The notes under the pieces: generated by a model
Databases searched by the model: none
The model's input: only the letters and a program-made list of their open reading frames with translations
Told to the model about the DNA's origin: nothing
Shown: piece by piece, positions 5,001-27,220 of the stretch
Layout: every line of letters begins with the position of its first letter
Numbering within the stretch: position 1 is the stretch's first letter
Source: a virus
Reading direction: 5' to 3' (one strand)
DNA: 64,000 nt
Virus record (IMG/VR): IMGVR_UViG_3300045988_066445
Coordinates: 1 to 64,000 of that record
Translations under genes and position numbers: made by a program

Positions 5001-5005
5001 CACTT

Positions 5006-5622: not shown

Positions 5623-5623
5623 T

Positions 5624-6085: not shown

Positions 6086-6090
6086 CAGTT

Positions 6091-6172
6091 GGGGTAGTGG
6101 CGGAATTGGTAGACGCGCTAGACTTAGGATCTAGTGCCGCAAGGCGTGAGGGTTCGAGTCCCTCCTACCCTA
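6091..6172 (+). tRNA. tRNA-Leu (anticodon UAG), type II
   Basis: Acceptor GGGGTAG/CTACCCT (G1-U72), anticodon stem CTAGA/TCTAG with loop CTTAGGA, long variable arm GCCGCAAGGCGTG, T-arm GAGGG-TTCGAGT-CCCTC. Confidence 0.8.
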
Positions 6173-6357
6173 CAACTTTTATTTATTAAATAATATGAAA
6201 GAGTTAAGTGAAATTATTCAGGAAATGGTAGACAATGGCAATTCCATGGGTCAAATGGACCTAAAACTGCCATAGTGTTTGTTACAGAGGCTTACGAATC
6301 TGGTATAGAAAAGGCTCGTTCTCTCATAACTAATGAACATAACGAGGAGGATTACTA

Positions 6358-7770: not shown

Positions 7771-7775
7771 AACTT

Positions 7776-7797
7776 GGGGAGCTAGTCTCCCCTTTAT
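7776..7797 (+). terminator. rho-independent terminator
   Basis: GGGGAG-CTAGT-CTCCCC followed by TTTAT. Lies between the AAA+ gene and tRNA-Cys. Confidence 0.55.
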
Positions 7798-7871
7798 GTC
7801 TAGATGCCCGAGCGGTCTAAGGGAACGGTCTGCAAAACCGTGTTTCGTGGGTTCGAATCCCACTCTAGATT
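7798..7871 (+). tRNA. tRNA-Cys (anticodon GCA)
   Basis: Acceptor GTCTAGA/TCTAGAT (G1-U72), anticodon stem ACGGT/ACCGT with loop CTGCAAA, T-arm GTGGG-TTCGAAT-CCCAC. Confidence 0.75.
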
Positions 7872-7891
7872 CTACACTAATCTTATTGCTT

Positions 7892-8320
7892 ATGGATAGA
7901 GAATTAAGAAGAGAACTTTCTAAAAGAAAGTGGATTTCGAGAGCTAAAAAGGTTTACAACGCTTGCGGTAAATTTTACGTACCTGTTGCCGGGATTAAAG
8001 CCAATGTAAGGTATAATGTTCCTATAATAAGGAATAAGGCGTTGAAGGTCTGTGAGTCAATTACGGATTTCCTTGATAGTTCTAAATACGCAAAGATGCT
8101 TAAGAATTGCACTTCTCCTTATAGAAGCAGAATGATGCAATATGAATACAAGAAAGAGAATAGAAAGGATAGATATAAAGCAAAAAGAGATATTCAAGAA
8201 GGTATTCAAGAATATGAATCTAGGGACAATCTTTCGTGTTCATCCTGCATTTTCTATGATAAAGGCTTTTGCGAAAAGGGATTATTAATGACTGAAAACT
8301 GCCCAGAATATTGGGATTAA
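7892..8320 (+). CDS. hypothetical protein with Cys-rich C-terminus (start moved downstream of tRNA-Cys)
   Basis: The track ORF 7745..8320 overlaps tRNA-Cys. First Met after the tRNA is at 7892 (MDRELRRELSK...). C-terminal CSSCIFYDKGFCEKG...CPEYW motif. Confidence 0.4.
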   Translation: MDRELRRELSKRKWISRAKKVYNACGKFYVPVAGIKANVRYNVPIIRNKALKVCESITDFLDSSKYAKMLKNCTSPYRSRMMQYEYKKENRKDRYKAKRDIQEGIQEYESRDNLSCSSCIFYDKGFCEKGLLMTENCPEYWD

Positions 8321-8323
8321 AGT

Positions 8324-8683
8324 ATGGACAAGTATATTAATGGAAGTTTAGTAAAGAGAGTTTTAGTTTTTAAAACTAGAAAGCATCCCGATTGGGTACA
8401 TTATGTGGACGATTACCGATTCTTGTTTTGGAAAATACATCGAGATTATTGGTATTATTGGGACCCATGTTTTGGAACTTATACGGAAGAAAAAATGATT
8501 TCATCTTTAGAGAAGAGATATGCCTTCTACAAGGATGGAATAGTATATCAGAAACCTCATATCATTTTAGAGTTCTCTAAAAGACATGATGAATCTATCT
8601 ATTTTGATAGTGACGAAGAAATGGAGGGATGGTTTGAATCCTTCATGGAAGAATTTGGAAAACCGTTTATTTACATAGACTAA
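8324..8683 (+). CDS. hypothetical protein
   Basis: 119-aa ORF rich in aromatic residues. Confidence 0.4.
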   Translation: MDKYINGSLVKRVLVFKTRKHPDWVHYVDDYRFLFWKIHRDYWYYWDPCFGTYTEEKMISSLEKRYAFYKDGIVYQKPHIILEFSKRHDESIYFDSDEEMEGWFESFMEEFGKPFIYID

Positions 8684-8804
8684 TACCTTTATCCCAGTTT
8701 AGAGCTTAGCTCAAATAGTGAATAATAGTAGCTATTGGTTAAAACGAGGTGGAGTGCCAGACGAAAGACTGGAATTAACATAGTTTAACTTTGAATCTCC
8801 GACT

Positions 8805-9149
8805 ATGCAGAGTATTATTATGGCAGAATTGATTTTCTTAGCTAATGGAAGATGTGACTTGAAAATGCACGCACCTATCAAAAACTTTAAAAGAGTTGAG
8901 GTAGTAAAGCACAAAAGAAACTTCTTCAAGGTGTTCGTTGACCGCAACGACAGCGTTTATGACGTGAAGCGTTGCACAGTTATCACATGGAAAACCGTAG
9001 ACAACGGTAAAAGAAAATTGAATGTTCCAGACAAAGTTGAGGAGGTACGCGATGCCAATCTCTTCGACAAAATCAAGGGAAATCCATTCAAGATCGCACT
9101 TACTAAAATAATTGGCGAAATTGAAGCCCAAGAATTACTACATTCGTAG
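8805..9149 (+). CDS. hypothetical protein
   Basis: 114-aa ORF. Confidence 0.35.
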   Translation: MQSIIMAELIFLANGRCDLKMHAPIKNFKRVEVVKHKRNFFKVFVDRNDSVYDVKRCTVITWKTVDNGKRKLNVPDKVEEVRDANLFDKIKGNPFKIALTKIIGEIEAQELLHS

Positions 9150-9185
9150 TAGCGTTTAGGAGAGTATCGCATAACTCTCCTCAAT

Positions 9186-9260
9186 GCAGATGTGGTGTTA
9201 ATGGTTTGAGCACGTCAGACTTCCAATCTGAAGGGGAGAGTTCGAGTCTCTCTATCTGCA
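9186..9260 (+). tRNA. tRNA-Gly (anticodon UCC)
   Basis: Acceptor GCAGATG/TATCTGC, anticodon stem TCAGA/TCTGA with loop CTTCCAA, T-arm GAGAG-TTCGAGT-CTCTC. Confidence 0.8.
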
Positions 9261-9265
9261 CATTT

Positions 9266-9337
9266 GTAGGTATAGCACAACGGTTAGTGCATCGGCTTGC
9301 CATGCCGAGGATGTGAGTTCGATTCTCATTACCTACT
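9266..9337 (+). tRNA. tRNA-Gly (anticodon GCC)
   Basis: Acceptor GTAGGTA/TACCTAC, D-arm GCAC-AACGGTTA-GTGC, anticodon stem TCGGC/GCCGA with loop TTGCCAT, T-arm GTGAG-TTCGATT-CTCAT. Confidence 0.8.
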
Positions 9338-9343
9338 CAATAT

Positions 9344-9424
9344 TCCGATTTAGCTCAGTCTGGTTAGAGCGTCCGCATCCAAAACATCAGCGGGAGGTCA
9401 GGGGTTCAAATCCTTTAATCGGAA
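9344..9424 (+). tRNA. tRNA with a 13-nt anticodon loop (stem TCCGC/GCGGG; loop ATCCAAAACATCA; CCA or CAU anticodon possible)
   Basis: Acceptor TCCGATT/AATCGGA pairs perfectly, D-arm GCTC-AGTCTGGTTA-GAGC and the T-arm are canonical. The anticodon loop carries about 6 extra nt. Confidence 0.45.
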
Positions 9425-9428
9425 CAAT

Positions 9429-9502
9429 CTCGGTGTACCAGAGTGGTTTAATGGCTAGGACTGCAAATCCTTAGTTCGTCAGTTCGAATCTGACCACCGA
9501 GT
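9429..9502 (+). tRNA. tRNA-Cys (anticodon GCA), second copy
   Basis: Acceptor CTCGGTG/CACCGAG, anticodon stem TAGGA/TCCTT (U-U at base) with loop CTGCAAA, T-arm GTCAG-TTCGAAT-CTGAC. Confidence 0.65.
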
Positions 9503-9508
9503 CAATAT

Positions 9509-9588
9509 AGTGGAGTAGAGAAGTTGGTCATCTCGCTAGGCTCATAACCTAGAAATCGTCATAAACGGTTCGAATCCTACCTCCGCAA
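9509..9588 (+). tRNA. tRNA-like gene with CAU anticodon and a degenerate T-arm (possible tRNA pseudogene)
   Basis: Acceptor AGTGGAG/CTCCGCA (6/7 paired), D-arm GAGA-AGTTGGTCA-TCTC, anticodon stem CTAGG/CCTAG with loop CTCATAA. The T-loop TTCGAAT is present but its flanks AACGG/CCTAC do not pair and the region is 6 nt too long. Confidence 0.3.
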
Positions 9589-9833
9589 CTAAACTCCTTT
9601 TGTGGCTCTGAATTAGATTAATTATTAACAATTTTAAACTTTGATGTTATGAAGAAAGTAATTAATGTTGTGAAGAAAGCTGCTAAGTGGTATTTTGAAC
9701 AGAGTTCTAAGAGCTATACATGGTTAGTTTCTGGAACTATTCCGCCTCCTTATAGAGGTCTAGAGTAAAGATACTACTAAAAGGTAAGTACCAAAGGGGT
9801 ACTTATCTACACCCGTGGAGAAAATTAACTATT

Positions 9834-9903
9834 GGGGTATAGTTCAAAGGTCAGAACTTTTGACTGTTAATCAAAGAATCATGGTTCGAGTCCATGTGCC
9901 CCA
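9834..9903 (+). tRNA. tRNA-Asn (anticodon GUU)
   Basis: Acceptor GGGGTAT/GTGCCCC, anticodon stem TTTGA/TCAAA with loop CTGTTAA, T-arm ATGG-TTCGAGT-CCAT. Confidence 0.7.
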
Positions 9904-9925
9904 GCTATTGACCTTATATTAGATT

Positions 9926-10084
9926 ATGCATCAGTGTGATTATTGTTGTTGGTACTACAGTGGAAATTGTGATTGTCCATATGTAATGAAGAAACAAGCG
10001 TGTGAAAATGCTTTGAAAACTAAAGAGAGAAATGAAAGACCTATTAGAAAAGTACAAAATGTTTCAAACTCCAAAACTAGCTAA
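9926..10084 (+). CDS. small Cys-rich protein (52 aa)
   Basis: MHQCDYCCWYYSGNCDCPYV... ATG preceded by ATATTAGATTATG. Confidence 0.3.
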   Translation: MHQCDYCCWYYSGNCDCPYVMKKQACENALKTKERNERPIRKVQNVSNSKTS

Positions 10085-10433
10085 TGAGATTTCATGGAAA
10101 GACATGAAGGAATTTAACTCTTATATGAAAGAAGTAGTTCGTGATTATAAGATTAAACAGGCTAAATCAATTCAGAGTGCTAGAAACGTAATAATATCCT
10201 GACCTGGCAAGGTAAAAATCCATTCGGGGTTTAAGTTGAAGCCAGTCCCTGCGGAATCATAAAGACCTTTTCTGATACGATAGTCGATGAACTGAGAGAG
10301 TAGTATGGTTGCGGACTTATGCTACTAGAACATGATTTAAACAAAAAAAACTTATCTGGTGATGTTAGGTTATGGAATCCTAACAGTGGAAATTTATGGG
10401 TATGTCACCAATTAAAAAGAAAATCCCAAAAAT

Positions 10434-10506
10434 GGGCCGTTAGCTCAAATGGCTAGAGCGCTGGTTTTGCACACCGGAAGATAGGGTTCGAGTCCCTGCG
10501 TGTCCA
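10434..10506 (+). tRNA. tRNA-Ala (anticodon UGC) with G3-U70 but a poorly paired inner acceptor stem
   Basis: D-arm GCTC-AAATGGCTA-GAGC, anticodon stem CTGGT/ACCGG with loop TTTGCAC, T-arm TAGGG-TTCGAGT-CCCTG. Acceptor GGGCCGT versus CGTGTCC pairs only the outer 4 positions, including G3-U70. Confidence 0.55.
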
Positions 10507-10715
10507 CAAACTTTATTTAAAAAATTATGAAAGATATGTAGTTGTAGTAAATTATCACCCAGCTAATGCTCCTCAAAATTATGAAACTGATTGCCAAATC
10601 TTCTTAGACAAGAAACAGGCAGAGAAGTATAAAGAGGCTAAGGAAAAAGAGTTTCCTATTAGCTGGGGAGGAGAGTATAATCATTGTAAACTAATTAAAA
10701 AGCATTTGTAATATC

Positions 10716-10787
10716 GCGGGATGATAGCAGAGGTAGCTAGTCAGGCTCATAACCTGAAGGTCGTCGGTTCGAATCCGACTCCCGTTA
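10716..10787 (+). tRNA. tRNA with CAU anticodon (Met or Ile2), acceptor stem register ambiguous
   Basis: D-arm TAGC-AGAGGTA-GCTA, anticodon stem TCAGG/CCTGA with loop CTCATAA, T-arm GTCGG-TTCGAAT-CCGAC. 5' CGGGA pairs with 3' TCCCG. Confidence 0.6.
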
Positions 10788-10818
10788 CTAAGTTATTTTT
10801 AACAATTAAAATTAGATT

Positions 10819-11244
10819 ATGGATTTCAAGAATCTTACAAAGGAATCTCTTCCGAAAGAATTTCAGGAGAGAATCGAACGTTTCAATCGTTTGTTCGTTG
10901 AAGCTGGTGATGGTACATTTGAAGAAAATGACCTATTTGGTTATGAAATGGCTTGTATAAAGCAAGCCCTATCATTCTCTGAGTTTTTCAAAGAAATGAG
11001 TCTGGAGGAATGTAAAGCCTTCTATGAGAAATATCCTAGCTTATTTGGGCTGATTGAGGCTATCAAAGACAAACTTCCTTACTTTGATAATGGTCATAGT
11101 GGAAACTCTATGAGCATGAGTTGGATGCTATACAGGTGTTATAAGGAGAAACCTGAGCTTGTTCCTTATATGCATGGTTGTCTGGCTCAACTTGTTGGAG
11201 ACGAAGGTTATCATGATAATCGTTCTGATGTTCCTAAGTTATGA
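10819..11244 (+). CDS. hypothetical protein
   Basis: 141-aa ORF. ATG preceded by AAAATTAGATTATG. Confidence 0.45.
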   Translation: MDFKNLTKESLPKEFQERIERFNRLFVEAGDGTFEENDLFGYEMACIKQALSFSEFFKEMSLEECKAFYEKYPSLFGLIEAIKDKLPYFDNGHSGNSMSMSWMLYRCYKEKPELVPYMHGCLAQLVGDEGYHDNRSDVPKL

Positions 11245-11537
11245 GTGTAATACAACAAGTTTATCTAGCTGATTCTGGATGTTCTATTTATATAAAAGGG
11301 ATAAAACCAGATAAGGACAATGAATATTCTGGTGAGATTACTATAAACGGTAATCCCACTAGATTAGAAAGAAAAGAACGCTATCATATTGATGGTGGTA
11401 TGCTCGTTACTGATAGTTACCATATTCCTATGGAGTTTATAATTAGTTTTTTACAAGCTAATAATTGTGTTGAACAGAAAGAGGATGGTAAAATGTATGT
11501 TGTTCTAAAAGAAGTGGAATTTAAACTCAATAAATAA
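11241..11537 (+). CDS. hypothetical protein
   Basis: 98-aa ORF with ATGA overlap to the upstream gene. Confidence 0.4.
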   Translation: MSVIQQVYLADSGCSIYIKGIKPDKDNEYSGEITINGNPTRLERKERYHIDGGMLVTDSYHIPMEFIISFLQANNCVEQKEDGKMYVVLKEVEFKLNK

Positions 11538-12118
11538 TGTTATCAATACTTTATGACGAATACCTAAAATGGGGTTGTCCCAACTGTGGTTGTGATGCCA
11601 TTAAAGGTAGTTGTGTATCTGGAGGAGGTTTAACTTCTGGTACTTGTAGACATTGCAAGTTAAAATTTGAAGTTAGAAGCGAAAACCCAATGGGAATAGT
11701 CCAATATGGCTGCCATCCAGAAAATCCCTCAGACCCGAAATCTAAATGGGTTATGGAAAGCGCAATCAGAATTGAACATCCTAGAAAAGGTATTCCTGCA
11801 TGGAATTGGGAACCAGTTGACGAACGTCCAGAAGAAGGAGAATATTGGAACTCTCGTGGTCCTGGCTATCCAGATGTTTCTGGCTTTGTAAAGACTAAAG
11901 CTGCTGGTGAGCGTATTCTAGCTATGGTGCATGAAGTGTTAGGAACTGACAAGTGTAAGACTTATCTAGATTTCAGACCAAGTGAACCAACGTGGATTCA
12001 ATTTAAGTTCCAGTCTAGCGAGTTTGACTTAGAAAAGTTGGATAAGCTATCTAGAGAAGCTGATAGAGTAGTTACTAAGGAAATATTAAAACAGTGTTTA
12101 TATGGCAAAAGTAATTAA
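11537..12118 (+). CDS. hypothetical protein with N-terminal zinc-ribbon (CPNCGC...CRHCK)
   Basis: 193-aa ORF with four Cys in CxxC pairs near the N-terminus. Confidence 0.4.
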   Translation: MLSILYDEYLKWGCPNCGCDAIKGSCVSGGGLTSGTCRHCKLKFEVRSENPMGIVQYGCHPENPSDPKSKWVMESAIRIEHPRKGIPAWNWEPVDERPEEGEYWNSRGPGYPDVSGFVKTKAAGERILAMVHEVLGTDKCKTYLDFRPSEPTWIQFKFQSSEFDLEKLDKLSREADRVVTKEILKQCLYGKSN

Positions 12119-12359
12119 TAAGACAATCACAACACATCTTACAAATATGAAAGATGGAGATGTAGCTGAGATTGTAAATTGGTTCTGTGACGAGGAAATG
12201 GAGCCTGGAACTATAGTTCAGAGGTACGGAGATGCTTTAATTATCATTGGTGGGCGTAGCGGTCTATGCTATCCTAAGCTGTTTACTGTTGCGGATACGC
12301 GTCGTTTGCTTACTTGTAAGGTCACAATTTTGCCTCCTGGCTCAACTATAATGCTATAA
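12102..12359 (+). CDS. hypothetical protein
   Basis: 85-aa ORF. Confidence 0.35.
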   Translation: MAKVINKTITTHLTNMKDGDVAEIVNWFCDEEMEPGTIVQRYGDALIIIGGRSGLCYPKLFTVADTRRLLTCKVTILPPGSTIML

Positions 12360-12401
12360 TTTCTTTTCTCCAGTTTTCTAATCAGAGATAAACTGGAACA
12401 T

Positions 12402-12916
12402 GGGCCTACTTGGATTTGACAGGCGATTACGAATTATAAGGACGTGTAGAGCGCAATCTCTCTAAACGAAGGAAAACAATAATTGCTACTTATAGCGAAG
12501 TAAGAATGGCAGCGTGAGCTGTGGCTAATTAATAGAAATATTAATCGAGTCGGGTTAACGGAGAAGACCTAGAAACAGAAGAGGTGTACAGCAGAAGGAT
12601 GATAGAGCCACTGTGCTTAACTTGAAAGCCAAAGGTTAGTAAAGCTGAAATTCTCCATTACCTATCTATAGGTTACAAATAGGCGTTCTCCAACGTAAAT
12701 GGAGTGGTAGAGAAGAGACCCCTGGTCCTCTAAGTTTGATAGTTTGTTGTATAGTTAAGCGGAAAGGTGCTAGATGAGTCCGCTTGTAAAGAATCTAGCT
12801 CTTCTATGAAAACTATCTAAATGCTAGAACTCACTAGCTGATATAATAAAAATGAGACGCACGTTATCCTTGTAACGAGGGTTGTTTGGACACGGGTTCG
12901 ACTCCCGTTAGGTCCA
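12402..12916 (+). ncRNA. ssrA: tmRNA (SsrA-like), phage-encoded
   Basis: 5' GGGCCUACUUGGAUUUGACAGGCG closely resembles the canonical tmRNA 5' end GGGGCUGAUUCUGGAUUCGACGGG. 3' end is GGACACGGGTTCGACTCCCGTTAGGTCC-A, a T-arm plus acceptor. Acceptor GGGCCUA/UAGGUCC closes with the G3-U70 alanine identity pair. Candidate tag frame GCT ACT TAT AGC GAA GTA AGA ATG GCA GCG TGA at 12485-12517. Confidence 0.7.
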
Positions 12917-12922
12917 CATAAT

Positions 12923-12996
12923 AGGGCTATAGCTCAACTGGTTAGAGCACCACACTGATAATGTGGAGGTTATCAGTTCAAGTCTGATTAGCCCTA
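12923..12996 (+). tRNA. tRNA-Ile (anticodon GAU)
   Basis: Acceptor AGGGCTA/TAGCCCT, D-arm GCTC-AACTGGTTA-GAGC, anticodon loop CTGATAA, T-arm ATCAG-TTCAAGT-CTGAT. Confidence 0.8.
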
Positions 12997-13042
12997 CAAA
13001 ACCGCCAGCTCACGCGGTATATAAGAAAGGATTGCCGGACTC

Positions 13043-13073
13043 GCAGGTGTAACGAGATAAATACCTGCATTTT
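13043..13073 (+). terminator. hairpin plus T-run
   Basis: GCAGGT-(14 nt)-ACCTGC followed by ATTTTCG. Confidence 0.35.
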
Positions 13074-13111
13074 CGAGGCTGTGGTGTAATGGCTTGCATA
13101 TCACACTGTCA
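13074..13111 (+). pseudogene. 5' half of a tRNA-Asp-like gene (acceptor 5' strand, D-arm, anticodon 5' stem and loop CTGTCA)
   Basis: CGAGGCT-GT-GGTGTAATGGCTTGCAT-A-TCACA-CTGTCA, then the sequence diverges into the HNH gene leader. Pairs with the 3' fragment at 13769-13805. Confidence 0.5.
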
Positions 13112-13133
13112 TTAAAATTAATTAAACTTATCT

Positions 13134-13685
13134 GTGAATCGAGAACAATCTCTTAAATTGTATTATGAGAATCCTAACCACTGTAAGGAATGTGGTAAGG
13201 TAATCGAAGTACTAGATAATCAGAGGGTCGCAGATGTGAGGAAGAAACAGTTTTGTAGTCATTCGTGTGCTGCTTCTTACAATAATAGAGGTAGGATAAA
13301 GCACGATGAAAACAAGATATGTCCTAGATGTGGTAAACCTAAGCATAAAGATTCAGAAATTTGTCGTAGTTGCTGGGAAGAACTTAATGGAATTGGTAAC
13401 AAAACATTAGGTTATTATACATCTGGGCAGAAGTACTTATCATCTAAATGTCAAGAAATAAGGACTAATGCTCGTAGAGTATTAGAAAGTTCCGAACGTG
13501 AGAAAGTATGTCAATATTGTCATAATCATGAATTTGATGCAATACTTGAAGTACATCATCTTAAAGGAATATTAGAATTTGACGAAGGCACTCTTATTAA
13601 AGAGATTAACAATGAGAATAATTTAGTATGGTTATGTCCGAATCACCATATTATGTTAGAGAAGGGTTTAATTAGTCTGGAGTAA
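13134..13685 (+). CDS. HNH homing endonuclease with multiple Cys4 zinc fingers
   Basis: C-terminal HHLKG...NNLVWLCPNHH is an HNH motif. Several CxxC pairs upstream. Embedded in the tRNA cluster. Confidence 0.75.
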   Translation: MNREQSLKLYYENPNHCKECGKVIEVLDNQRVADVRKKQFCSHSCAASYNNRGRIKHDENKICPRCGKPKHKDSEICRSCWEELNGIGNKTLGYYTSGQKYLSSKCQEIRTNARRVLESSEREKVCQYCHNHEFDAILEVHHLKGILEFDEGTLIKEINNENNLVWLCPNHHIMLEKGLISLE

Positions 13686-13696
13686 TCCAGTTACAC

Positions 13697-13768
13697 CGAG
13701 GGTTAGTTCAGTGGTAGAATAGCGCACTGTCTATGCGAAGGTCGCCAGTTCGAGTCTGGTACTCTCGG
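13697..13768 (+). tRNA. tRNA-Asp (anticodon GUC)
   Basis: Acceptor CGAGGGT/ACTCTCG, D-arm GTTC-AGTGGTA-GAAT, anticodon loop CTGTCTA, T-arm GCCAG-TTCGAGT-CTGGT. Confidence 0.8.
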
Positions 13769-13805
13769 CACTGTGAAGGTTGGGGTTCGAATCCCCCAGT
13801 CTCGG
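13769..13805 (+). pseudogene. 3' half of a tRNA-Asp-like gene (anticodon 3' stem TGTGA, variable loop, T-arm, acceptor 3' strand AGTCTCG)
   Basis: Anticodon 3' stem TGTGA complements TCACA of the 5' fragment. Acceptor AGTCTCG pairs 7/7 with CGAGGCT of the 5' fragment at 13074. Confidence 0.5.
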
Positions 13806-13811
13806 CTATAT

Positions 13812-13885
13812 TCCGGATTAGCTCAATTGGCTAGAGCACGTGATTTGTAATCTCGAGGTTGTGGGTTCGACCCCCACATCCGGAT
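13812..13885 (+). tRNA. tRNA-Thr (anticodon UGU), tentative
   Basis: Acceptor TCCGGAT/ATCCGGA, D-arm GCTC-AATTGGCTA-GAGC, anticodon stem CGTGA/TCTCG (one mismatch) with loop TTTGTAA, T-arm GTGGG-TTCGACC-CCCAC. Confidence 0.65.
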
Positions 13886-13913
13886 CTTTAACTATTAATT
13901 AGATTAATTATTT

Positions 13914-14588
13914 ATGACTAGATTAGAAAAGTATTTATTGGCAACAGCTTCTGAAATAATTGAAGCTGAAACTACAGTTTCTCGCTATTTTGTTATAGGT
14001 AATGTTAAGGTAAGAGTCTCTGACCATTGGAGTAGAATGACTGACGCAGACCTGCAGGTCATTATTCCTTACAACGGAGGAACTAAATATGTTGTGACTA
14101 TTAAAGATAGTCCTGGAAAGTTTCTCGTTTGGAATGCAAATCAGATTAAAGATTTTATTCCATCGTTGCAGCTTATAAAAGGAATGAAGACACCTGTACA
14201 GATGGGCCCAAAACCTAAGGATTCTGCTGTGCAGAAGATACAACAAGCACTAAGTAACAATACTCCTGCTGAAGGTTGTTTAACTTTCAGTGGAACTCTT
14301 GTTGAGAGTACTCTTAAGGACAAATATCTATCTGCAAAACAGAGAGAAGTTCTTAGAAAACCTAAGTCAACTTGGGATGCGTCTCAAGTAGGATGCTTAC
14401 CAGAAATGGTGAGAATAGATCTAAAACTTAAGTCTTCCGCTTCTATAAATGAAGACGTGCAAATTTTCCTTACATGTACCTCTTTGACTTATATAGAGTT
14501 CTTGAACATTTATAAAATAGTAGTTGTAGACAATAATAAAGTCCCAACTATTAAGTTATTGCAAGAGGCTTATAGTCTTATCGCGTAA
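13914..14588 (+). CDS. hypothetical protein
   Basis: 224-aa ORF. ATG preceded by TTAATTAGATTAATTATTT. Confidence 0.45.
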   Translation: MTRLEKYLLATASEIIEAETTVSRYFVIGNVKVRVSDHWSRMTDADLQVIIPYNGGTKYVVTIKDSPGKFLVWNANQIKDFIPSLQLIKGMKTPVQMGPKPKDSAVQKIQQALSNNTPAEGCLTFSGTLVESTLKDKYLSAKQREVLRKPKSTWDASQVGCLPEMVRIDLKLKSSASINEDVQIFLTCTSLTYIEFLNIYKIVVVDNNKVPTIKLLQEAYSLIA

Positions 14589-14595
14589 CCAGGAT

Positions 14596-14667
14596 AGCGC
14601 CATCATCTAAGGGTTAGGATACAAGATTTTCATTCTTGGCATACGGGTTCGAATCCCGTTGGCGTTA
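14596..14667 (+). tRNA. tRNA-Glu (anticodon UUC)
   Basis: Acceptor AGCGCCA/TGGCGTT, anticodon stem CAAGA/TCTTG with loop TTTTCAT, T-arm ACGGG-TTCGAAT-CCCGT. Confidence 0.75.
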
Positions 14668-14674
14668 CTATGTA

Positions 14675-15948: not shown

Positions 15949-16225
15949 GGATATACTAGGGCATGAGGTAAGAGGTACTAATACTTCTTACTATGGTATC
16001 TCCGCACTACAAGCTGTTATTAATCACGATGAGATTCGTGCTGACATAGCTAAATATTTATATAAAGACTGCACAACGCACGAGGGACATGAAGGAATAA
16101 TTATAGGATTTGAGGACAACAATCAGTTCTTTGATTATTACTACATTGTTTACATTCCTGAACTCAACAAGGTTGAATATCAGCTGTGCAATGATGCAGA
16201 ATTTACAAAATCTATCAAGATATGA
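15923..16225 (+). CDS. hypothetical protein
   Basis: 100-aa ORF. Confidence 0.35.
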   Translation: MVITTSYDKDILGHEVRGTNTSYYGISALQAVINHDEIRADIAKYLYKDCTTHEGHEGIIIGFEDNNQFFDYYYIVYIPELNKVEYQLCNDAEFTKSIKI

Positions 16226-16716
16226 AAAAGAAAGTTTTATTCATCTTACTAATCAGTATAGTATTTGGTTTTGCAACGGGATACTCGTTGCATCACCTTA
16301 TCCACTTTAATGAGAAGCAAGATGAAATGGTAATGCTGCCAGAGCATCCATTTTATTTGTTGGAAGAAGTAAATGAAGAGGTACTTTATAATACCTTAGT
16401 ACATTACGATTTTCCAAGTCCAGCTATTATAACAGCCCAGGCTGTTCTGGAATCTGGCAATTTTAAATCAAAGCTATGTAAAGATAAGAATAATCTGTTC
16501 GGACTTTATAACTCTAGAACAATGTCTTACTTTAGCTTTGATAGTTGGATAAGCTGTGTATTTGCTTATAAGAAGTTCATCCTCAACAAGTATAATCCAG
16601 AAGAGAATTATTATGTATTCTTGGATAGGATAGGGTACGCGGAGGATTCTCTTTATGAGAGTAAGGTTAAGAAATTAGAACTTGAAATTTCCAATAAGTA
16701 TGGAAACTCAGAATAG
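16222..16716 (+). CDS. peptidoglycan hydrolase, glucosaminidase-domain (FlgJ/Mur2-like) with N-terminal TM/signal
   Basis: ITAQAVLESGNFKSKLCKDKNNLFGLYN matches the glucosaminidase signature A-Q-A-x-L-E-S-G...N-N-L-F-G. N-terminal hydrophobic segment. Confidence 0.6.
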   Translation: MKKKVLFILLISIVFGFATGYSLHHLIHFNEKQDEMVMLPEHPFYLLEEVNEEVLYNTLVHYDFPSPAIITAQAVLESGNFKSKLCKDKNNLFGLYNSRTMSYFSFDSWISCVFAYKKFILNKYNPEENYYVFLDRIGYAEDSLYESKVKKLELEISNKYGNSE

Positions 16717-16918
16717 AGAAGTTATTAAGCTTAGAAAGAAAGCTAATTTCAAAATCTTAACCAGACTCGGACAAATTATTGACCAGTATCCTTACCTAAG
16801 GTTTCAGCAGATTCTTGCTATTTACAAGATTAGTGAACCTTATGAGGATAAGTTTTATGAAGAAAGTGTAGAAACATTACAAAAACTGGAACATGAATTG
16901 GAAAACAGAGGGAGTTAG
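16682..16918 (+). CDS. hypothetical protein
   Basis: 78-aa ORF downstream of the PG hydrolase. Confidence 0.3.
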   Translation: MKFPISMETQNREVIKLRKKANFKILTRLGQIIDQYPYLRFQQILAIYKISEPYEDKFYEESVETLQKLEHELENRGS

Positions 16919-16937
16919 ACTAGGAGCAGTAGCTGCT

Positions 16938-17048
16938 ATGGCGGTAGTTTTATTTGGGATTAAAGAGATACTCGGTTTTGAAACTGCTGCCCTAAGTGGA
17001 ATAGGCATAATTTTAGTTAATCAAATATTTAATAAAGATCAAAAATGA
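16938..17048 (+). CDS. small hydrophobic membrane protein (36 aa; holin- or spanin-like candidate)
   Basis: MAVVLFGIKEILGFETAALSGIGIILVNQIF... ATGA overlap with the downstream gene. Lies next to the PG hydrolase. Confidence 0.3.
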   Translation: MAVVLFGIKEILGFETAALSGIGIILVNQIFNKDQK

Positions 17049-21832: not shown

Positions 21833-22849
21833 ATGAAGAAAATTTTTAGTATTATTTGTTTGTGTTTAATGTGTGCGTTTGCAAGTGCGCAAGTTGTAGA
21901 AACCGGAAGTTTGAAAGACAATTGGTATATTTCCGGCAATGTTGGAACTACAGTTTGGGACAATCAGAGAAGTTGGGCTGAACCTAATGATATTCTGGTG
22001 AATATTGCTGTAGGTAAAGAAATTACACCTATCTTTGGCCTAGAATTAGACATGGTAGCTGGTATGAATCAGGGAAATAAGACATTCTTTGATTCACACA
22101 ACCTTACGGCTAATGTTACTACCAATCTTAGTAATTTGGTATGTGGCTATGAAGGCAATAGACGTCTGTTTGAACCAGTATTGATTATAGGAGCAGGTTG
22201 GTATCATACCTATGGGTACGTCTATAACAATGTATCTGCGCGTGGTGCAGTAAGATGTAATTTCAACATTACTGATACGTGGGCGTTAAATATAACCCCA
22301 GAATATATGCTACTTCCTAAAACTACTCCATTAAACCAAGAAGTCAATGTTTATGTAGGAGCTACTTACAGATTTAAGTCGAGCAAAGGGAATTTCCCAG
22401 TTATGAAACTTTATAATGATTCGGAAATAGAAAGCTTAAATGCGTCTATTAATGAATTGAGAGAGAAGAATAATGAACTTATGGCTCGCAAACCTGTTGA
22501 GGTAGTTAAGGTAGATACCATAGAAATTACTAAGGTAGAATTACTTACTCCTAAAATCCAATTCTTACAAAACTCCTCTGAAATATCCGCTACTTCTAAT
22601 GTTGCTGTGTCTGAATTAGCAGCTTACATAGCAAATAGTGGTAAGTCATATGTTATAGAGGGATATGCTTCTGAAGAGGGACCTATCGACTTCAACAACA
22701 AATTAGCTAATGCTAGAGCGGAATCTATGAAGAAGGCTCTGGTTAACTATGGTGCTCCAGAGGACAAACTTACAGTAAAGGGGTGTGGAGTTACTACTGA
22801 TTTTGGAGATAATGAATTTAACAGAATTGTAATAGTTTCTGAGCAATGA
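21833..22849 (+). CDS. OmpA-family outer-membrane protein (N-terminal beta-barrel-like domain plus C-terminal OmpA/peptidoglycan-binding domain)
   Basis: Signal peptide MKKIFSIICLCLMCAFASAQ. C-terminal YVIEGYASEEGPIDFNNKLANARAESMKKALVNYG matches the OmpA_C signature. Confidence 0.7.
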   Translation: MKKIFSIICLCLMCAFASAQVVETGSLKDNWYISGNVGTTVWDNQRSWAEPNDILVNIAVGKEITPIFGLELDMVAGMNQGNKTFFDSHNLTANVTTNLSNLVCGYEGNRRLFEPVLIIGAGWYHTYGYVYNNVSARGAVRCNFNITDTWALNITPEYMLLPKTTPLNQEVNVYVGATYRFKSSKGNFPVMKLYNDSEIESLNASINELREKNNELMARKPVEVVKVDTIEITKVELLTPKIQFLQNSSEISATSNVAVSELAAYIANSGKSYVIEGYASEEGPIDFNNKLANARAESMKKALVNYGAPEDKLTVKGCGVTTDFGDNEFNRIVIVSEQ

Positions 22850-23090
22850 AGTACAAGAAGAGAGTAGCTTGGTTGAAATCAAAGCAAGCATGGTGGGACA
22901 AGCAAGGGAAGGATTTTCAAGCTGCTACCACTAGACCAGGTTCTGTAAAAACTCGGTGATTTATGATTGCGTTTATAATTATATGCTTACTATTCATTGC
23001 ATATATCTACTATGATCCTTATGTAGATATTGCGGAGGATAGTGTACTACTGTGGTATAATAAGAAAAGCAATAGAGAATATATTATTTT

Positions 23091-23303
23091 ATGGTCGAGA
23101 AAAACCTAATTAAGGCATTTATTGCCATAGTATTAGTTTTTGTAGCCTATAATATGGGACTGTGGTTATTATCTCAGTCCCTATGGGTTGCAAACCTTGG
23201 AGGACTATTGTTATTATTTATAGCAATTCCTAGTCTAGTCTATAGGACTATTAAACATTTCAAAAAACATTTTAAAAATAAAAAAGATGAAGACAATAAT
23301 TAA
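23091..23303 (+). CDS. small two-TM membrane protein
   Basis: Two hydrophobic helices. Overlaps the downstream SPFH gene start. Confidence 0.4.
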   Translation: MVEKNLIKAFIAIVLVFVAYNMGLWLLSQSLWVANLGGLLLLFIAIPSLVYRTIKHFKKHFKNKKDEDNN

Positions 23304-24111
23304 GTTTCTGTGTGTATTAACTCTAGTATTTGGTTTGTCAAGTTGCGGCTACGAGCGGGTAGACGCTGGACATGAAGGAATCAAGGTAAATCTTTACGGT
23401 GATGGTAAAGGAGTAGATGACATCTCATTGGTCACGGGGGCTGTTTGGTATAATCCAATTACCACAGCTGTATATGAATACCCAACCTATGTGCTTACTG
23501 TGGACTATGAGGCTTTTTCTATTAATGCTAAGGATGGTTCGTCATTTACTGTTGACCCTACTATATCTCTTAAGATAGTTGATGGAAAGTCACCTGAGGT
23601 ATTTAAGAAATACAGAAAAGACAATATACTTGATGTCGTAAATACTACATTATATAACTATGTTAAAAACGCATTCCGTATACAACTTAATAATTATACT
23701 ACTGATGAATTAGTTAGCAAAAGAGAAGAGTTTGAGAAATCTATAGAAGATAGATTAAGCAAAGAATTACTTGCCGAAAACTTCCAACTTGAGCAGCTAA
23801 CTTCTGGTCTTCAATATCCTAAGACACTAGTAGATGCTATTGATGCTAAAAATAAAGCGGTGCAGGATGCTCTTAAGATAGAAAATGAGGTTAAATCTGT
23901 AGAAGCTAATGCTAAAAAGGCTGTAGCCCAAGCAGAGGGAGCAGCTCAGGCTCTGAAAATTAAGGGAGACGCAGAAGCTGAGTATAACAGAAAGATTGCA
24001 GCTTCCTTATCTGCATTGATTGTACAACAGAATTTTGTGGAGAAGTGGGATGGAAAACTGCCTACTTATGGTACTGTTCCTACCTTATTTAAGGATGTAG
24101 CTGGGAAATAA
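23287..24111 (+). CDS. SPFH/band-7 (prohibitin/HflKC-like) lipoprotein
   Basis: Lipoprotein signal ...LVFGLSSCGYE. SPFH core followed by an Ala/Lys/Glu-rich coiled coil. Confidence 0.65.
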   Translation: MKTIIKFLCVLTLVFGLSSCGYERVDAGHEGIKVNLYGDGKGVDDISLVTGAVWYNPITTAVYEYPTYVLTVDYEAFSINAKDGSSFTVDPTISLKIVDGKSPEVFKKYRKDNILDVVNTTLYNYVKNAFRIQLNNYTTDELVSKREEFEKSIEDRLSKELLAENFQLEQLTSGLQYPKTLVDAIDAKNKAVQDALKIENEVKSVEANAKKAVAQAEGAAQALKIKGDAEAEYNRKIAASLSALIVQQNFVEKWDGKLPTYGTVPTLFKDVAGK

Positions 24112-24113
24112 CT

Positions 24114-24461
24114 ATGATGTACTTAATAATATGCACTGTGATGATAATCGTCACGGTGCTTATCTTAAAAGATACTCATGTTACGGTTTATTGGACTGGG
24201 TATAGTAGCAACTATGCTAACATAGACGAAGAGTATGACATTAAAGTTCCAATCTGGGCAGTATTACTAATCATAGTTCTGGGATTTGTTCCTGTCTTAA
24301 ATATAGTACTATATATGGTAGGTTATATATACTATGCAATCCATGCTTTGTGGAATCCTAACAGAAATGACGGATATACTCACAAGTATACGTTAAGAGG
24401 TAGAAATGTTCTGACTAAAATTATAAAGAAGATATGGAAGATCTTAAATTTGTGTATTTAA
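24114..24461 (+). CDS. small membrane protein (2 TM)
   Basis: Hydrophobic helices. Directly downstream of the SPFH gene. Confidence 0.4.
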   Translation: MMYLIICTVMIIVTVLILKDTHVTVYWTGYSSNYANIDEEYDIKVPIWAVLLIIVLGFVPVLNIVLYMVGYIYYAIHALWNPNRNDGYTHKYTLRGRNVLTKIIKKIWKILNLCI

Positions 24462-24766
24462 TATGCGACGGCATAGGGCTTATACTTTATGCACTTCTAT
24501 ATTACTGTCTGTACTACACCTACCAGGTAAATTGGTTAACTTCTAAAGCTACAAGAATAAAAATCCCTAGATGGACTATTATTATTGTTGTAGCTAGTTT
24601 GATTATCCCTCCGCTTGGTTTAGGTGCCTCACTAGCATCGTGGGTAGTATACGCATTTGCAGTGTACAATGAAGACTATACAGTAGATGTCCCTATTCTT
24701 AACTTCCTAGGAGATTCGTTATATGATTCGGATATTAAAGCATTTAAGAAGGATACTAAGGCATAA
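24434..24766 (+). CDS. small membrane protein (2-3 TM)
   Basis: Hydrophobic. Overlaps both neighbours. Confidence 0.4.
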   Translation: MEDLKFVYLICDGIGLILYALLYYCLYYTYQVNWLTSKATRIKIPRWTIIIVVASLIIPPLGLGASLASWVVYAFAVYNEDYTVDVPILNFLGDSLYDSDIKAFKKDTKA

Positions 24767-25229
24767 GTTCTGGGTTGCATACTATTGCTTCCAATTAGGA
24801 CTATACAGGCAGGGCATTTTGCACGATTTATCTAAGTTCGGATGGTATGAATTTTCTCGCTCTGTTAAATTTTACGATGATAACACATCTCCATTAAATA
24901 AGGAGAAAGAAATTCTGGGCTATTCTAGGTCCTATTTACATCATAGAGGAAGAAATCCACATCATTATGAATATTGGGTAACTCAATTAGATTCTGGTGG
25001 AGTCCCAGTGAAAATCCCTAGAGAATATGCATTAGAGTTAGTGTGTGATTATTTAGCCGCTGGTAAGGTATATAATGGAAATAGTTTCCAAGGAGAGTAC
25101 AACTGGTGGATTAAATATATTAGCGCTCCTAGAGCGATTCATCCAGAGACAAAAGAGTTTATTACTCAATGTTTTAAGAACTTAGCTGTCGGTAAAAACA
25201 TGAAGAGTTTATTAACAATCAGTTATTAA
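24723..25229 (+). CDS. hypothetical protein
   Basis: 168-aa ORF, His/Tyr-rich. Confidence 0.4.
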   Translation: MIRILKHLRRILRHKFWVAYYCFQLGLYRQGILHDLSKFGWYEFSRSVKFYDDNTSPLNKEKEILGYSRSYLHHRGRNPHHYEYWVTQLDSGGVPVKIPREYALELVCDYLAAGKVYNGNSFQGEYNWWIKYISAPRAIHPETKEFITQCFKNLAVGKNMKSLLTISY

Positions 25230-25242
25230 AATAATTTTTAGA

Positions 25243-26931
25243 ATGGAAATAATTAATGCAACAGATGGTTACAAATTAGGCCATCACAGGATGTACCCAG
25301 AAGGTACTGAACAAGTTTATAGTAACTGGACTCCGAGAAGTAACAAGTACTTTCCAGAAGCTACCGAAGGTTCTGTAGTATTCGGAATCCAATATTTAAT
25401 TAAAAAGTATTTGATCGACGAATTTAATAAGAATTTCTTTGTATTGCCTAAAGAGAAAGCTATAGAAATGTTTTATCGGAGAGTCCACAACTTCGTTGGA
25501 ATTGAGTCCGTGGGATATAGACATATTGAGGCTTTGTATGATTTAGGATATCTCCCTATTCGTATTAAAGCGTTGCCAGAAGGTTCAGTATGTCCTATTA
25601 GAGTTCCTATGATGACTATTACTAATACGAAACCAGAGTTCTTTTGGTTAACTAATTATCTAGAGACTTTGATTAGTTGTACTTTGTGGATGCCTTGTAC
25701 CTCTGCCACTAGAGCAAGACTCTATAAGAAAGAACTCAAAAGACACTCAGTACACACTGGATTTCCGGAGGATGTAAACCTGGATTTCTTGTGTCATGAC
25801 TTCTCTATGAGAGGAATGGCTGGTTTGGAAGCATCTGTTATTTCTGGTATGGCTCATATGACTTCATTTGTAGGAAGTGAAACTATTCCTGCTATTGCAG
25901 CTCTTGAAGAGTATTATGGAGCTAATTCGGATAGTGAATTAATTGCTGCTACTGTTCCGGCTACTGAACATTCGGTAATGTGTGCAGGAGGAGAAGAGGA
26001 TGAGTTAGGAACATATAAACGTCTTATTAATGAGTTATATCCTACTGGGTTTGTTTCTATAGTGTCCGATACTTGGGATTTCTGGAATGTTGTTGAAAAC
26101 TTCCTTCCTAAGTTGAAGAAAGACATTATGGCTCGTGACGGTCGTGTAGTTATTCGTCCCGATAGTGGAGACCCGGTAGATATTATTTGTGGTCTGAGAA
26201 CTAATCCTCATTTCAATACAAGAATAAAGGAAGGTAAATACTACTGCTGTTATGCTCCGTTTAATGACGATGCAGAGTATGTAGAAGTGTCAGAAGGTCA
26301 ATACTACGGAGCGTACTATATGCTTGGTAAGATATTCGGCTGGAATACTACTTCCAAGGACTATCGTTATCCGAGTACTAAGATAGGCTTGTTATATGGC
26401 GATTCTATTACTTTGGAGCGTCAGAAACAAATCTACATGAGACTTGAAAATGCTCATATGGCTGCTTGCAACCTTGTTCTTGGTGTTGGTTCATTCTCAT
26501 ATCAGTATGCAAGTAGAGATAGTCTAGGCTTTGCAGTTAAGGCTACTGCTTGTGTAATCAATGGAGAATTGAAGGAAATCTTTAAACATCCGAAAACTGA
26601 TGATGGGACTAAGAACTCTTTGAAAGGGTTAATTGCCGTTTATCAGGATGTCAACGGTGTCTACTACGCGGAAGACCAAGTAAGTCCTGAAGTAGAAGAG
26701 GGAGGCTGTTTATGCAACGAATGCGGTTATGAGGCTGGAGACCCAGATTGCACTGGGTGTTTATATTCTTGGAACAAGGATAATGTAAATAAGTTTAGTG
26801 TCCCGTGTATAAACCAATATACTTATTGTGCTATCTATATTGCTGAAAGTCTAGATGAACTATATGAAGCTATACAGAACAGAGCAGACTTCATCGAAAA
26901 TCTTATTAAAGAAATAGAAAATGATAATTGA
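25243..26931 (+). CDS. nadV: nicotinamide phosphoribosyltransferase (NAMPT / NadV-like)
   Basis: N-terminus MEIINATDGYKLGHHRMYPEGT and overall length and layout match phage/bacterial NadV-type NAMPT. Confidence 0.75.
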   Translation: MEIINATDGYKLGHHRMYPEGTEQVYSNWTPRSNKYFPEATEGSVVFGIQYLIKKYLIDEFNKNFFVLPKEKAIEMFYRRVHNFVGIESVGYRHIEALYDLGYLPIRIKALPEGSVCPIRVPMMTITNTKPEFFWLTNYLETLISCTLWMPCTSATRARLYKKELKRHSVHTGFPEDVNLDFLCHDFSMRGMAGLEASVISGMAHMTSFVGSETIPAIAALEEYYGANSDSELIAATVPATEHSVMCAGGEEDELGTYKRLINELYPTGFVSIVSDTWDFWNVVENFLPKLKKDIMARDGRVVIRPDSGDPVDIICGLRTNPHFNTRIKEGKYYCCYAPFNDDAEYVEVSEGQYYGAYYMLGKIFGWNTTSKDYRYPSTKIGLLYGDSITLERQKQIYMRLENAHMAACNLVLGVGSFSYQYASRDSLGFAVKATACVINGELKEIFKHPKTDDGTKNSLKGLIAVYQDVNGVYYAEDQVSPEVEEGGCLCNECGYEAGDPDCTGCLYSWNKDNVNKFSVPCINQYTYCAIYIAESLDELYEAIQNRADFIENLIKEIENDN

Positions 26932-27220
26932 AGGCTCCTTTTATAGGCTAACCCCTATCAATGATGCTTCTCCTCGTTTCGACTTGGAGCTGCTATATGA
27001 TATTGGAGGGAAAAATCCGAGAAAAGAATTTAAAGTGGAAGGCTATGGCTATTCACTAGAGGCTGCTGTAGAACGTTGTATAAACTACGCAACTAGAAAG
27101 AAATTCGGAAAAGATGAAATTATAACTTTAGGTCAGTACTTAGATGAGTTTAAAAAGGCAAAAGAAGAGATTAAACTCGAAATCACCGGAAGTGCAGGAG
27201 ATTCTAGCGGAAAGGCTTAA
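26921..27220 (+). CDS. hypothetical protein
   Basis: 99-aa ORF. Confidence 0.35.
   Translation: MIIEGSFYRLTPINDASPRFDLELLYDIGGKNPRKEFKVEGYGYSLEAAVERCINYATRKKFGKDEIITLGQYLDEFKKAKEEIKLEITGSAGDSSGKA

Follow-up and report, generated by a model that had tools for sequence, protein, structure and literature searches.

A prohibitin-type SPFH lipoprotein and its small membrane partners in a gut phage: a candidate accessory envelope module

SPFH proteins are universal membrane organisers whose roles in bacteria are still debated; prohibitin, stomatin, HflK/C, erlin, QmcA-YbbJ, flotillin and vault are all ring or cage formers. Here we analysed a gene cassette built around an SPFH lipoprotein, which is encoded in a 64,000-nucleotide stretch of phage DNA (IMG/VR virus record IMGVR_UViG_3300045988_066445, positions 1 to 64,000), the whole of which we call the window. 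This lipoprotein belongs to an already known and widely annotated phage family, the function of which is uncharacterised. We observed that the conserved unit is a pair, in which a gene for a small transmembrane (TM) protein, called p70 in the window, is followed by the SPFH gene.

The mitochondrial prohibitins PHB1/PHB2 (PDB 8RRH, 9O9Z, 9UNL) have the same layout as the window protein, i.e. an anchor, the SPFH domain, a coiled coil and a C-terminal cap, and their SPFH domain projects into the counterpart of the periplasm, as that of the window protein is predicted to do. NCBI labels homologues of the latter 'prohibitin family protein'. However, the window protein is only ~18-19% identical to PHB1/PHB2, is predicted to be anchored by a lipid instead of a TM helix, is encoded by one gene and not by a pair, and has a dedicated small TM partner gene. 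The HflK/HflC-FtsH complex of E. coli (PDB 7VHQ, 7WI3, 9CZ2) shares with it the cage-forming fold (E about 1e-10) and the periplasmic orientation, and homologues of the window protein are often annotated as HflC-like in sources, but the window has neither a K/C gene pair next to this gene nor a linkage to FtsH.

The SPFH-NfeD operons (QmcA-YbbJ, PDB 8Z5G; FloT-NfeD2; PH1511-PH1510) follow a shared logic, with a small membrane-protein gene placed directly upstream of the SPFH gene and coupled to it, and QmcA is a fold match to the window protein (1.7e-9). As in these operons, the membrane-partner gene of the window is adjacent to the SPFH gene and co-oriented with it. Unlike the NfeD partners, p70 has no OB-fold domain and consists of a 70-amino-acid (aa) hairpin of two TM segments, and the SPFH domain would be outward-facing and lipid-anchored. 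Read from its genes, the window module thus looks like an SPFH-partner operon without NfeD. In the Kayvirus group (Staphylococcus phage K group), MbpS is a homologue of the window protein (about 25% identity, tblastn 2e-8) and is directly preceded by a small membrane protein, MbpV, described as holin-like (PMC7150955), as p70 precedes the SPFH protein in the window. The differences are the Gram-positive host, the single TM segment and long charged tail of MbpV and the lack of the p115 family described below. Other relatives of the window protein within PHROG 200 are phiP27 L05, PVP-SE1 gp117, phiE125 gp43, AR9 gp180 and the crAss-like 'SPFH domain/band 7' proteins.

The SPFH lipoprotein and its cassette

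The window is a one-strand phage segment of 36% GC, and the relatives of this phage are contigs of 185-193 kb from human-gut viromes. A preliminary description of the stretch had placed an SPFH lipoprotein and three tiny multi-TM proteins at 23091-24766; the four open reading frames (ORFs) are exactly there, from p70 to p110, and the three flanking products are indeed small, tightly packed membrane proteins. To these we add p48, which belongs to the cassette though its gene lies outside that range. The features of the cassette are the following.

22963-23109, plus strand: p48, 48 aa, 1 TM segment (ORF; iterated hidden Markov model, HMM; dN/dS, the ratio of nonsynonymous to synonymous change)
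23091-23303, plus strand: p70, 70 aa, 2 TM segments forming a helical hairpin (ORF; family HMM; dN/dS)
23287-24111, plus strand: SPFH (prohibitin-type) lipoprotein, 274 aa (Band_7, PHROG 200, PDB, AlphaFold2 (AF2)/Foldseek)
23335-23346, plus strand: predicted lipobox L-S-S-C, residues 17-20 (sequence reading; Cys20 invariant in alignments)
23821-24006, plus strand: Ala/Lys/Glu-rich long helix, residues 179-240 (composition scan; AF2 model)
24040-24063, plus strand: C-terminal signature EKWDGKLP, residues 252-259 (family alignment)
24114-24461, plus strand: p115, 115 aa, 2-3 TM segments (ORF; family HMM; dN/dS)
24434-24766, plus strand: p110, 110 aa, 2-3 TM segments (BLASTP and HMM link to p115)

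The genes from 21833 to 27220 are packed in one string without real intergenic space. Overlaps of 19 nucleotides (nt), at the p70 start, and of 17, 28 and 44 nt were found at the p48/p70, p70/SPFH, p115/p110 and p110/DUF5662 junctions, respectively, whereas a 2-nt spacer separates SPFH from p115, which starts after the SPFH stop codon. The coupling by ATGA or overlapping starts that had been proposed for these genes therefore stands as far as the overlaps are concerned, but no ATGA occurs within the range; the sole ATGA junction lies upstream, between the OmpA-like gene and p37, at 22846. Small TM proteins make up 10 of the 112 plus-strand ORFs in the window, a base rate of 9%, and since four of these ten cluster within this 1.8-kb stretch, the arrangement of the cassette exceeds chance. 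Scans for promoters, terminators and the Bacteroidota -7 motif TAnnTTTG gave nothing above chance. One TAnnTTTG motif is present at 21781, ahead of the OmpA-like gene, and is a hint only.

The SPFH assignment, already made in the preliminary description, was upheld by profile, sequence and structure searches. The protein matched Pfam Band_7 (PF01145) with E=4.8e-21 and 76 bits (cutoff 23.6) over residues 24-216, and belongs to PHROG 200 'lipoprotein' (6e-59). A sequence search of the PDB returned human prohibitin 1 (2.7e-6) and prohibitin 2 (2e-5) over residues 3-227, which is near full length. An AF2 model based on a 43-sequence alignment covering several clades reached a pLDDT (predicted local distance difference test) of 83; a first model, from 18 near-identical sequences, had a pLDDT of 53.6 and was discarded. 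The model consists of an anchor helix, strands at 21-97, helices at 102-163, a 60-residue helix at 179-240 and a short C-terminal helix, i.e. the cage-type succession of an SPFH alpha/beta domain and a long coiled-coil helix. With this model, Foldseek placed the prohibitin complex 8rrh at the top of the PDB matches (2.7e-13), and stomatin, HflK/C, erlin, QmcA-YbbJ, flotillin and vault below it, with a probability of 1.00 for prohibitin, stomatin, HflK/C, erlin, QmcA and flotillin. Since PHB1/PHB2 are the top PDB matches both by sequence and by fold, the protein is prohibitin-type.

The resemblance to HflK/C-type regulators that had been put forward is thus a resemblance of fold to their cage and not a family membership. 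The HflC equivalog TIGR01932 gave E=0.015 and 14.1 bits, below its cutoff of 134.4 bits, and this gene has no SPFH neighbour, phmmer having found no paralogue in the window. Because of this score and of the single SPFH gene, without a tandem K/C pair, we conclude that the protein is not an HflK/C orthologue. A link of this SPFH module to membrane proteases would be an analogy only. The Ala/Lys-rich coiled coil noted earlier is present at residues 179-240; it aligns with the coiled coil of prohibitin and HflK/C and is the counterpart of the coiled coil that builds the wall of SPFH cages. At the C-terminus, residues W254, D255, G256, K257, L258 and P259 are invariant in the family alignment A4, and an EKWDGKLP-type motif is also present in homologues from E. 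coli, Burkholderia, Pseudomonas, Caulobacter, Staphylococcus and Bacillus phages. The architecture of a cage-forming SPFH protein is therefore complete, with an anchor, the SPFH domain, the wall helix and a C-terminal cap motif.

The N-terminus reads MKTIIKFLCVLTLVFGLSSC followed by GYE, and the LSSCGYE lipobox pointed out previously is present with Cys20 as its cysteine. The signal peptide and lipobox agree with the pattern [LVI][ASTVI][GAS]C, as MKTIIKFLCVLTLVFG-LSSC-GYE, and lipidation is predicted; Cys20, which would be the lipidated first mature residue, is invariant in the family alignments A1, A4 and A6. A lipoprotein signal peptide implies that the SPFH domain and the coiled coil are extracytoplasmic. 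In E. coli, Asp at +2 classically retains a lipoprotein in the inner membrane, according to the established Lol-avoidance rule. We found Asp at this position in the inspected enterobacterial copies having a C-D junction and in the Burkholderia phage phiE125. The homologues of Bacillus phages have an N-terminal TM anchor and no Cys, and that of the staphylococcal Kayvirus, annotated as a lipoprotein, begins with a hydrophobic stretch. The lipobox, the copies with Asp at +2 and the TM-anchored Bacillus homologues suggest that the family sits on the outer face of the cytoplasmic membrane, a location that is not secure for the window protein itself. A spanin was also considered and rejected, given the Asp at +2 (inner-membrane retention) in the enterobacterial and phiE125 C-D copies, the members found in Gram-positive phages and the position of the genes, mostly outside lysis cassettes.

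The small partners, their conservation and their distribution

We compared 80 viral loci (IMG/VR), 48 genome loci and ~20 annotated phage regions (numbered with L below), in which ORFs and hydrophobic segments were called. In nearly every one of the 80 gut-phage loci, a 60-75-aa ORF with two TM segments precedes the SPFH gene, usually with an overlap of ~10 nt. The p70 protein has a short S/T/N-rich loop between its two TM segments and a basic C-terminal tail, and the family alignment follows the pattern TM1 / [LM][IV]S..T..N..G / Gly-containing TM2 / basic tail. An HMM iterated from p70 gave exactly one match per locus in 90 loci, always directly upstream of the SPFH gene, including those of an E. 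coli P1-like phage (7e-13) and of phiP27 (1.7e-4). No Pfam, PHROG or NCBIfam family matched p70 above cutoff, and no Pfam or NCBIfam match to an NfeD domain was obtained for p70, p115, p110 or p48. A small membrane-protein gene occupies the same upstream position in Cellulophaga phi17:2, phiE125 and Kayvirus, and IAS virus and Lak-A2 likewise carry one; in PVP-SE1 it is one gene removed, and in Pae-1, Bacillus B13, AR9 and a Caulobacter phage its product has 1 or 3 TM segments.

The partner is easily overlooked in annotations. In PhiSH19 it is an unannotated 72-aa ORF with two TM segments (L151, 1932-2150, minus strand), and in PhiCrAssBcn1 the p70 homologue (L101, about 2787-3002) is absent from the GenBank annotation; gene callers also passed over the 2-TM gene in several metagenomic contigs. 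The 'superinfection exclusion protein' of PhiSH19 was examined as a candidate partner and rejected; it is a soluble acidic protein, and the true neighbour of the SPFH gene is the 72-aa ORF. We also rejected upl-plp of phage P1 as the identity of the pair, since P1 plp, of 125 aa, is encoded on the opposite strand. In P1-like variants, the variable slot that holds plp in P1 contains the 2-TM and SPFH pair instead.

By tblastn, a homologue of the SPFH lipoprotein was found in 598 of 50,697 phage records (about 1.2%), from phages whose hosts include Staphylococcus, Pseudomonas, Bacillus, Klebsiella, Erwinia, Escherichia, Burkholderia, Caulobacter, Salmonella and Prevotella (Lak). The pair itself is present in crAss-like, Lak, P1-like, phiP27, rV5-like, Vi01-like, Burkholderia and Cellulophaga phages. 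It is not phage-specific, because it also stands alone in chromosomes, with no phage genes around: in Chitinophaga (L152, 5822-6792) and in another megabase-scale chromosomal contig (L153, 5819-6798), a 59-60-aa 2-TM protein accompanies an SPFH lipoprotein ~55% identical to that of the window. In Cytophagales, some chromosomal SPFH homologues seem to have no partner. The enterobacterial pair was matched in 570 of 5,426 complete E. coli genomes (~10%), on chromosomes and plasmids, owing to prophages and phage-plasmids, with 218 genomes showing a match over at least 80% of the pair length. In temperate coliphages the pair lies in accessory slots, by int/xis (phiP27, Stx phages) or in the P1 variable region. 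The module is dispensable and mobile, not core: close relatives may have it or lack it, and prophages and phage-plasmids often carry it.

Beyond the pair, p48 and p115 are additions of Bacteroidota gut phages and p110 is an addition of the window strain. The four genes first described are consequently not the conserved unit. An iterated HMM found p48 in 65 related loci, crAss-like phages included, with matches in PhiCrAssBcn1 (2e-20) and IAS virus (5e-20). The p115 family comprises proteins of 100-121 aa with 2-3 TM segments, and in the loci examined it was seen in gut phages only, always directly downstream of the SPFH gene (81 related gut-phage loci). Among 5.8 billion proteins it forms 61 clusters, all of which lack a Pfam domain and an informative name, and among 1.84 billion proteins it has 127 representatives; no PHROG matched any of the 79 family members scanned. 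Two divergent or truncated members, looked up independently, each lie directly after a Band_7 gene. In L006 (6825-7176), p115 is frameshifted into ORFs of 42 and 89 aa, by a sequencing error or as a natural loss-of-function allele.

The p110 protein is a clear member of the p115 family, as a divergent second copy, by its pairwise BLASTP match to p115 (3e-4) and its match to the p115-seeded HMM (1.8e-16; reciprocal 4e-23). It is restricted to genomes with a 100% identical SPFH protein (L013-L016, L032; 0-2 nt differences) and is absent from relatives with an 86%-identical SPFH protein, in which p115 abuts DUF5662. Both proteins resemble class I/II holins in their size of ~110 aa, their 2-3 TM segments and their charged, basic C-terminal tail (a basic amphipathic tail in p115, which ends in ...KIIKKIWKILNLCI). 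The crAss-like p115-family genes sit by a peptidoglycan hydrolase gene, whereas no lysin is adjacent to p115/p110 in the window.

We computed dN/dS for p48, p70, p115 and the SPFH gene against L005, the relative with the 86%-identical SPFH protein; p110 is known only from near-identical genomes. The values were 0.16 for p48, 0.07 for p70, 0.21 for p115 and 0.04 for SPFH, with synonymous differences of 0.46-0.73, near saturation, and p48, p70 and p115 retain frame and length in L005. By these codon statistics the three small ORFs are genes under purifying selection. In addition, the window SPFH protein is 81% identical to that of a phage lineage of 25% GC with entirely different neighbours, at a proportion of synonymous differences (pS) of 0.81, and the cassette partners are just 23-42% identical between the two. 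A recent transfer as the source of this identity is ruled out by the saturated synonymous sites. That 81% identity is kept despite this saturation argues for purifying selection on the SPFH protein over a long time, a constraint compatible with an oligomeric scaffold, a conserved host contact or both. In the 25%-GC lineage (L001-L004), the neighbours of the SPFH gene include Macro, R2K and RNA-ligase genes, three small TM genes (128, 117 and 78 aa) lie downstream of it and a soluble 139-aa gene is inserted between it and the 2-TM partner gene.

Neighbouring genes and the flotillin-type module

Around the cassette, the same gene string contains the following genes.

21833-22849, plus strand: OmpA-like outer-membrane protein (Pfam OmpA 1.2e-11, OMP_b-brl 8e-10)
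22846-22959: p37, after the OmpA-like gene
24723-25229: DUF5662 protein, directly after p110
25243-26931: NAMPT (nicotinamide phosphoribosyltransferase), after DUF5662

The OmpA-like protein has a signal peptide, a beta-barrel and an OmpA_C peptidoglycan-binding domain, and its gene is kept in relatives. In Cellulophaga phi17:2, an OmpA-like protein of the same architecture is encoded two genes downstream of the 2-TM and SPFH pair (L094, 3392-4375), and its sequence similarity to the window protein is confined to the OmpA_C part. The window NAMPT has 562 aa against 515-520 aa in close relatives, and its extra C-terminal stretch is Cys-rich (CLCNECGYEAGDPDCTGC); in the crAss-like phage cr126_1, NAMPT likewise adjoins the SPFH cassette. 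Farther upstream, the gene at 16222-16716 encodes a 164-aa glucosaminidase with an N-terminal hydrophobic anchor, homologous (8e-38) to the crAss-like PF01832 enzyme, and just downstream of it there is a 51-aa ORF with two TM segments (16893-17048). ARAGORN reported 17 tRNA genes at 107-14668 and a candidate transfer-messenger RNA at 12402-12917, with the tag peptide VQQKDDRATVLNLKAKG.

The window also encodes a flotillin/FloT-like protein of 652 aa, at 968-2926 (Band_7 1.5e-17, NCBIfam FloT 5e-41). Upstream of its gene, 431-949 encodes a membrane protein of 172 aa, the C-terminus of which is beta-rich, so that this module shares the gene order of SPFH-NfeD operons. The 172-aa protein had no Pfam match and no sequence match in the PDB; it looks NfeD-like by eye, which is unconfirmed. 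The presence of two SPFH systems in one phage had been called unusual. Both are there, and the rarity comes mainly from the flotillin type, matched by tblastn in 8 of the 50,697 phage records compared with 598 for the lipoprotein. Of the two modules, the flotillin type is thus the rarer one in phages and the more unusual. That this phage also encodes a flotillin, behind a membrane-protein gene, suggests that it invests in membrane organisation.

Possible roles of the module

Because the SPFH gene is nearly always preceded, and usually overlapped, by a tiny membrane-protein gene, we tentatively favour an accessory envelope module in which the prohibitin-type SPFH lipoprotein is a ring scaffold organising small membrane partners. 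The lipoprotein would be exported and lipidated and, on the outer face of the cytoplasmic membrane, would then oligomerise to form a ring like that of prohibitin. This ring would enclose a membrane patch holding the co-translated small proteins: p70 everywhere and, in gut Bacteroidota phages, also p48 and the holin-like p115/p110, the latter two as likely clients. By analogy, p70 may take the role that NfeD has with other bacterial SPFH proteins, without an NfeD domain. The likeliest output would be a control over the integrity or permeabilisation of the membrane in the course of infection, with the small membrane proteins restrained, or kept in one place, until they are needed.

The link to permeabilisation draws on two groups of phages. 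A TM-anchored glucosaminidase comes after the cassette in most crAss-like loci, and in Kayvirus the homologous mbpV-mbpS pair has the holin/endolysin genes on one side and the gene of the Tgl lytic transglycosylase on the other; the lysis region was described as including MbpS and the holin-like MbpV, with the suggestion that they help the Sec-dependent export of Tgl (PMC7150955). A lysis cassette as the identity of the module was nevertheless set aside, since it is backed only in crAss-like phages and Kayvirus and not in the window or in most lineages; we keep it as a conjecture.

Several points weigh against the scaffold explanation. The linkage to lysis is lineage-specific: the glucosaminidase homologue of the window (16222-16716) is 6.4 kb away, upstream of the cassette, the pair is not near annotated lysis genes in phiP27, P1-like, AR9, B13, Pae-1 and Caulobacter phages, and the crAss001 gene annotated as a holin appears to be located elsewhere. 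Neither p115 nor p110 matched known holin families or PHROGs. For the partners with 1 or 3 TM segments in more distant lineages, homology to p70 is not demonstrable, and we infer both oligomerisation and the contact between the SPFH protein and p70 from homology and gene order. The sorting signal also differs within the family, the +2 residue being Glu in PVP-SE1 and Gly in PhiSH19, and Bacteroidota may follow different retention rules, so that the window protein could sit on the inner face of the outer membrane. Literature searches returned no functional study of this phage family, the role of which was called 'still not clear' (PMC8540360).

The ring could, as a different explanation, cage host FtsH from the periplasmic side and so shift the turnover of membrane proteins or phage regulators. 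The nearest solved structures, the prohibitin and HflK/C cages, both partner FtsH-family proteases and have the same topology, in which the SPFH domain is located outside the cytoplasmic membrane. In addition, conservation is far higher in the SPFH protein than in its partners, which fits the binding of a conserved host component. Similar ideas were expressed by several authors, who speculated on an HflK/C-like control of lysogeny or called the role unclear (PMC10269572, PMC8540360, bioRxiv 10.64898/2026.08.21.746148). However, the protein is not an HflK/C orthologue, it is encoded by one SPFH gene and not by a heteromeric pair, and a protease gene is linked to it in none of the loci inspected. 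The logic of lambda CII is inapplicable to the many carriers that are strictly lytic, and the obligatory small TM partner and the p115 family are left unexplained, so that we consider this modulation of FtsH unlikely. Much the same probability can be given to a superinfection-exclusion or host-protection moron, in which the pair, together with the OmpA-like protein in the window, would alter the envelope against DNA injection by other phages or otherwise benefit the carrier cell. The accessory slots of temperate elements (by int/xis in phiP27 and Stx phages, and the variable tRNA-ban slot of P1-like phage-plasmids) speak for it, as do the naming of the genes as morons in the Burkholderia phage CSP3 (PMC10269572), their patchy presence among close Bruynoghevirus relatives (PMC8540360), the matches in about a tenth of complete E. 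coli genomes and the OmpA-like envelope proteins that adjoin the pair in two Bacteroidota phage lineages. But strictly lytic phages carry the pair within early or replication regions, bacterial chromosomes carry it without phage context, no similarity to known exclusion proteins was seen, the 'superinfection exclusion' neighbour in PhiSH19 is not the partner, and PADLOC gave no match.

An abortive-infection-like membrane module had also been evoked for these genes, in which the small TM proteins would kill the cell with the SPFH protein as sensor or regulator. Small TM proteins with basic tails can depolarise membranes, and the cassette is compact and mobile; however, the PADLOC defence models gave no real match to the five cassette proteins, the OmpA-like protein or the proteins of the flotillin-type module, the sole hit, of the SPFH protein to JetC (0.004, 13 bits), being a coiled-coil artefact. 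Moreover, the module is carried by phages themselves, temperate ones and large lytic ones alike, and by plain, housekeeping-looking chromosomal loci, and strong purifying selection over a long divergence is atypical of fast-turnover defence genes. This part of the preliminary description is thus highly improbable. It is also very unlikely that the SPFH gene alone is functional and that the small ORFs around it are spurious or unrelated filler. Gene callers did skip p70 in several related contigs and in the PhiCrAssBcn1 and PhiSH19 GenBank records, and p115 is split in L006, but dN/dS of 0.07-0.21 with saturated synonymous sites, a position and topology kept across phyla and family HMMs giving one match per locus at the expected place all argue for real genes.

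A bolder form of the scaffold explanation, which we regard as rather doubtful, is that the small-TM and SPFH pair is an unrecognised two-component membrane system of phages and bacteria, a minimal, NfeD-less cage on the outer face of the membrane with a 2-TM hairpin as client or co-factor. Gut Bacteroidota phages (crAss-like phages and the roughly 186-kb lineage of the window) would have recruited the holin-like p115/p110 to it, the cage gating or timing permeabilisation. If so, this would be a new kind of lysis or membrane-integrity control.

The SPFH lipoprotein family is among the commoner uncharacterised membrane proteins of phages and is present in the abundant crAss-like phages of the human gut and in Lak megaphages. 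The near-universal small partner gene, the gut-phage p48 and p115 families and the tandem p115/p110 were not described in the literature returned by our searches. A constant tiny partner and a private third family in gut phages provide a testable handle on the roles of phage-encoded SPFH proteins. Should the module be a generic membrane stabiliser, the finding would be an ordinary one; if it acts instead on the timing of lysis, on exclusion or on the control of FtsH, it would be relevant to the handling of the host envelope by dominant gut phages.

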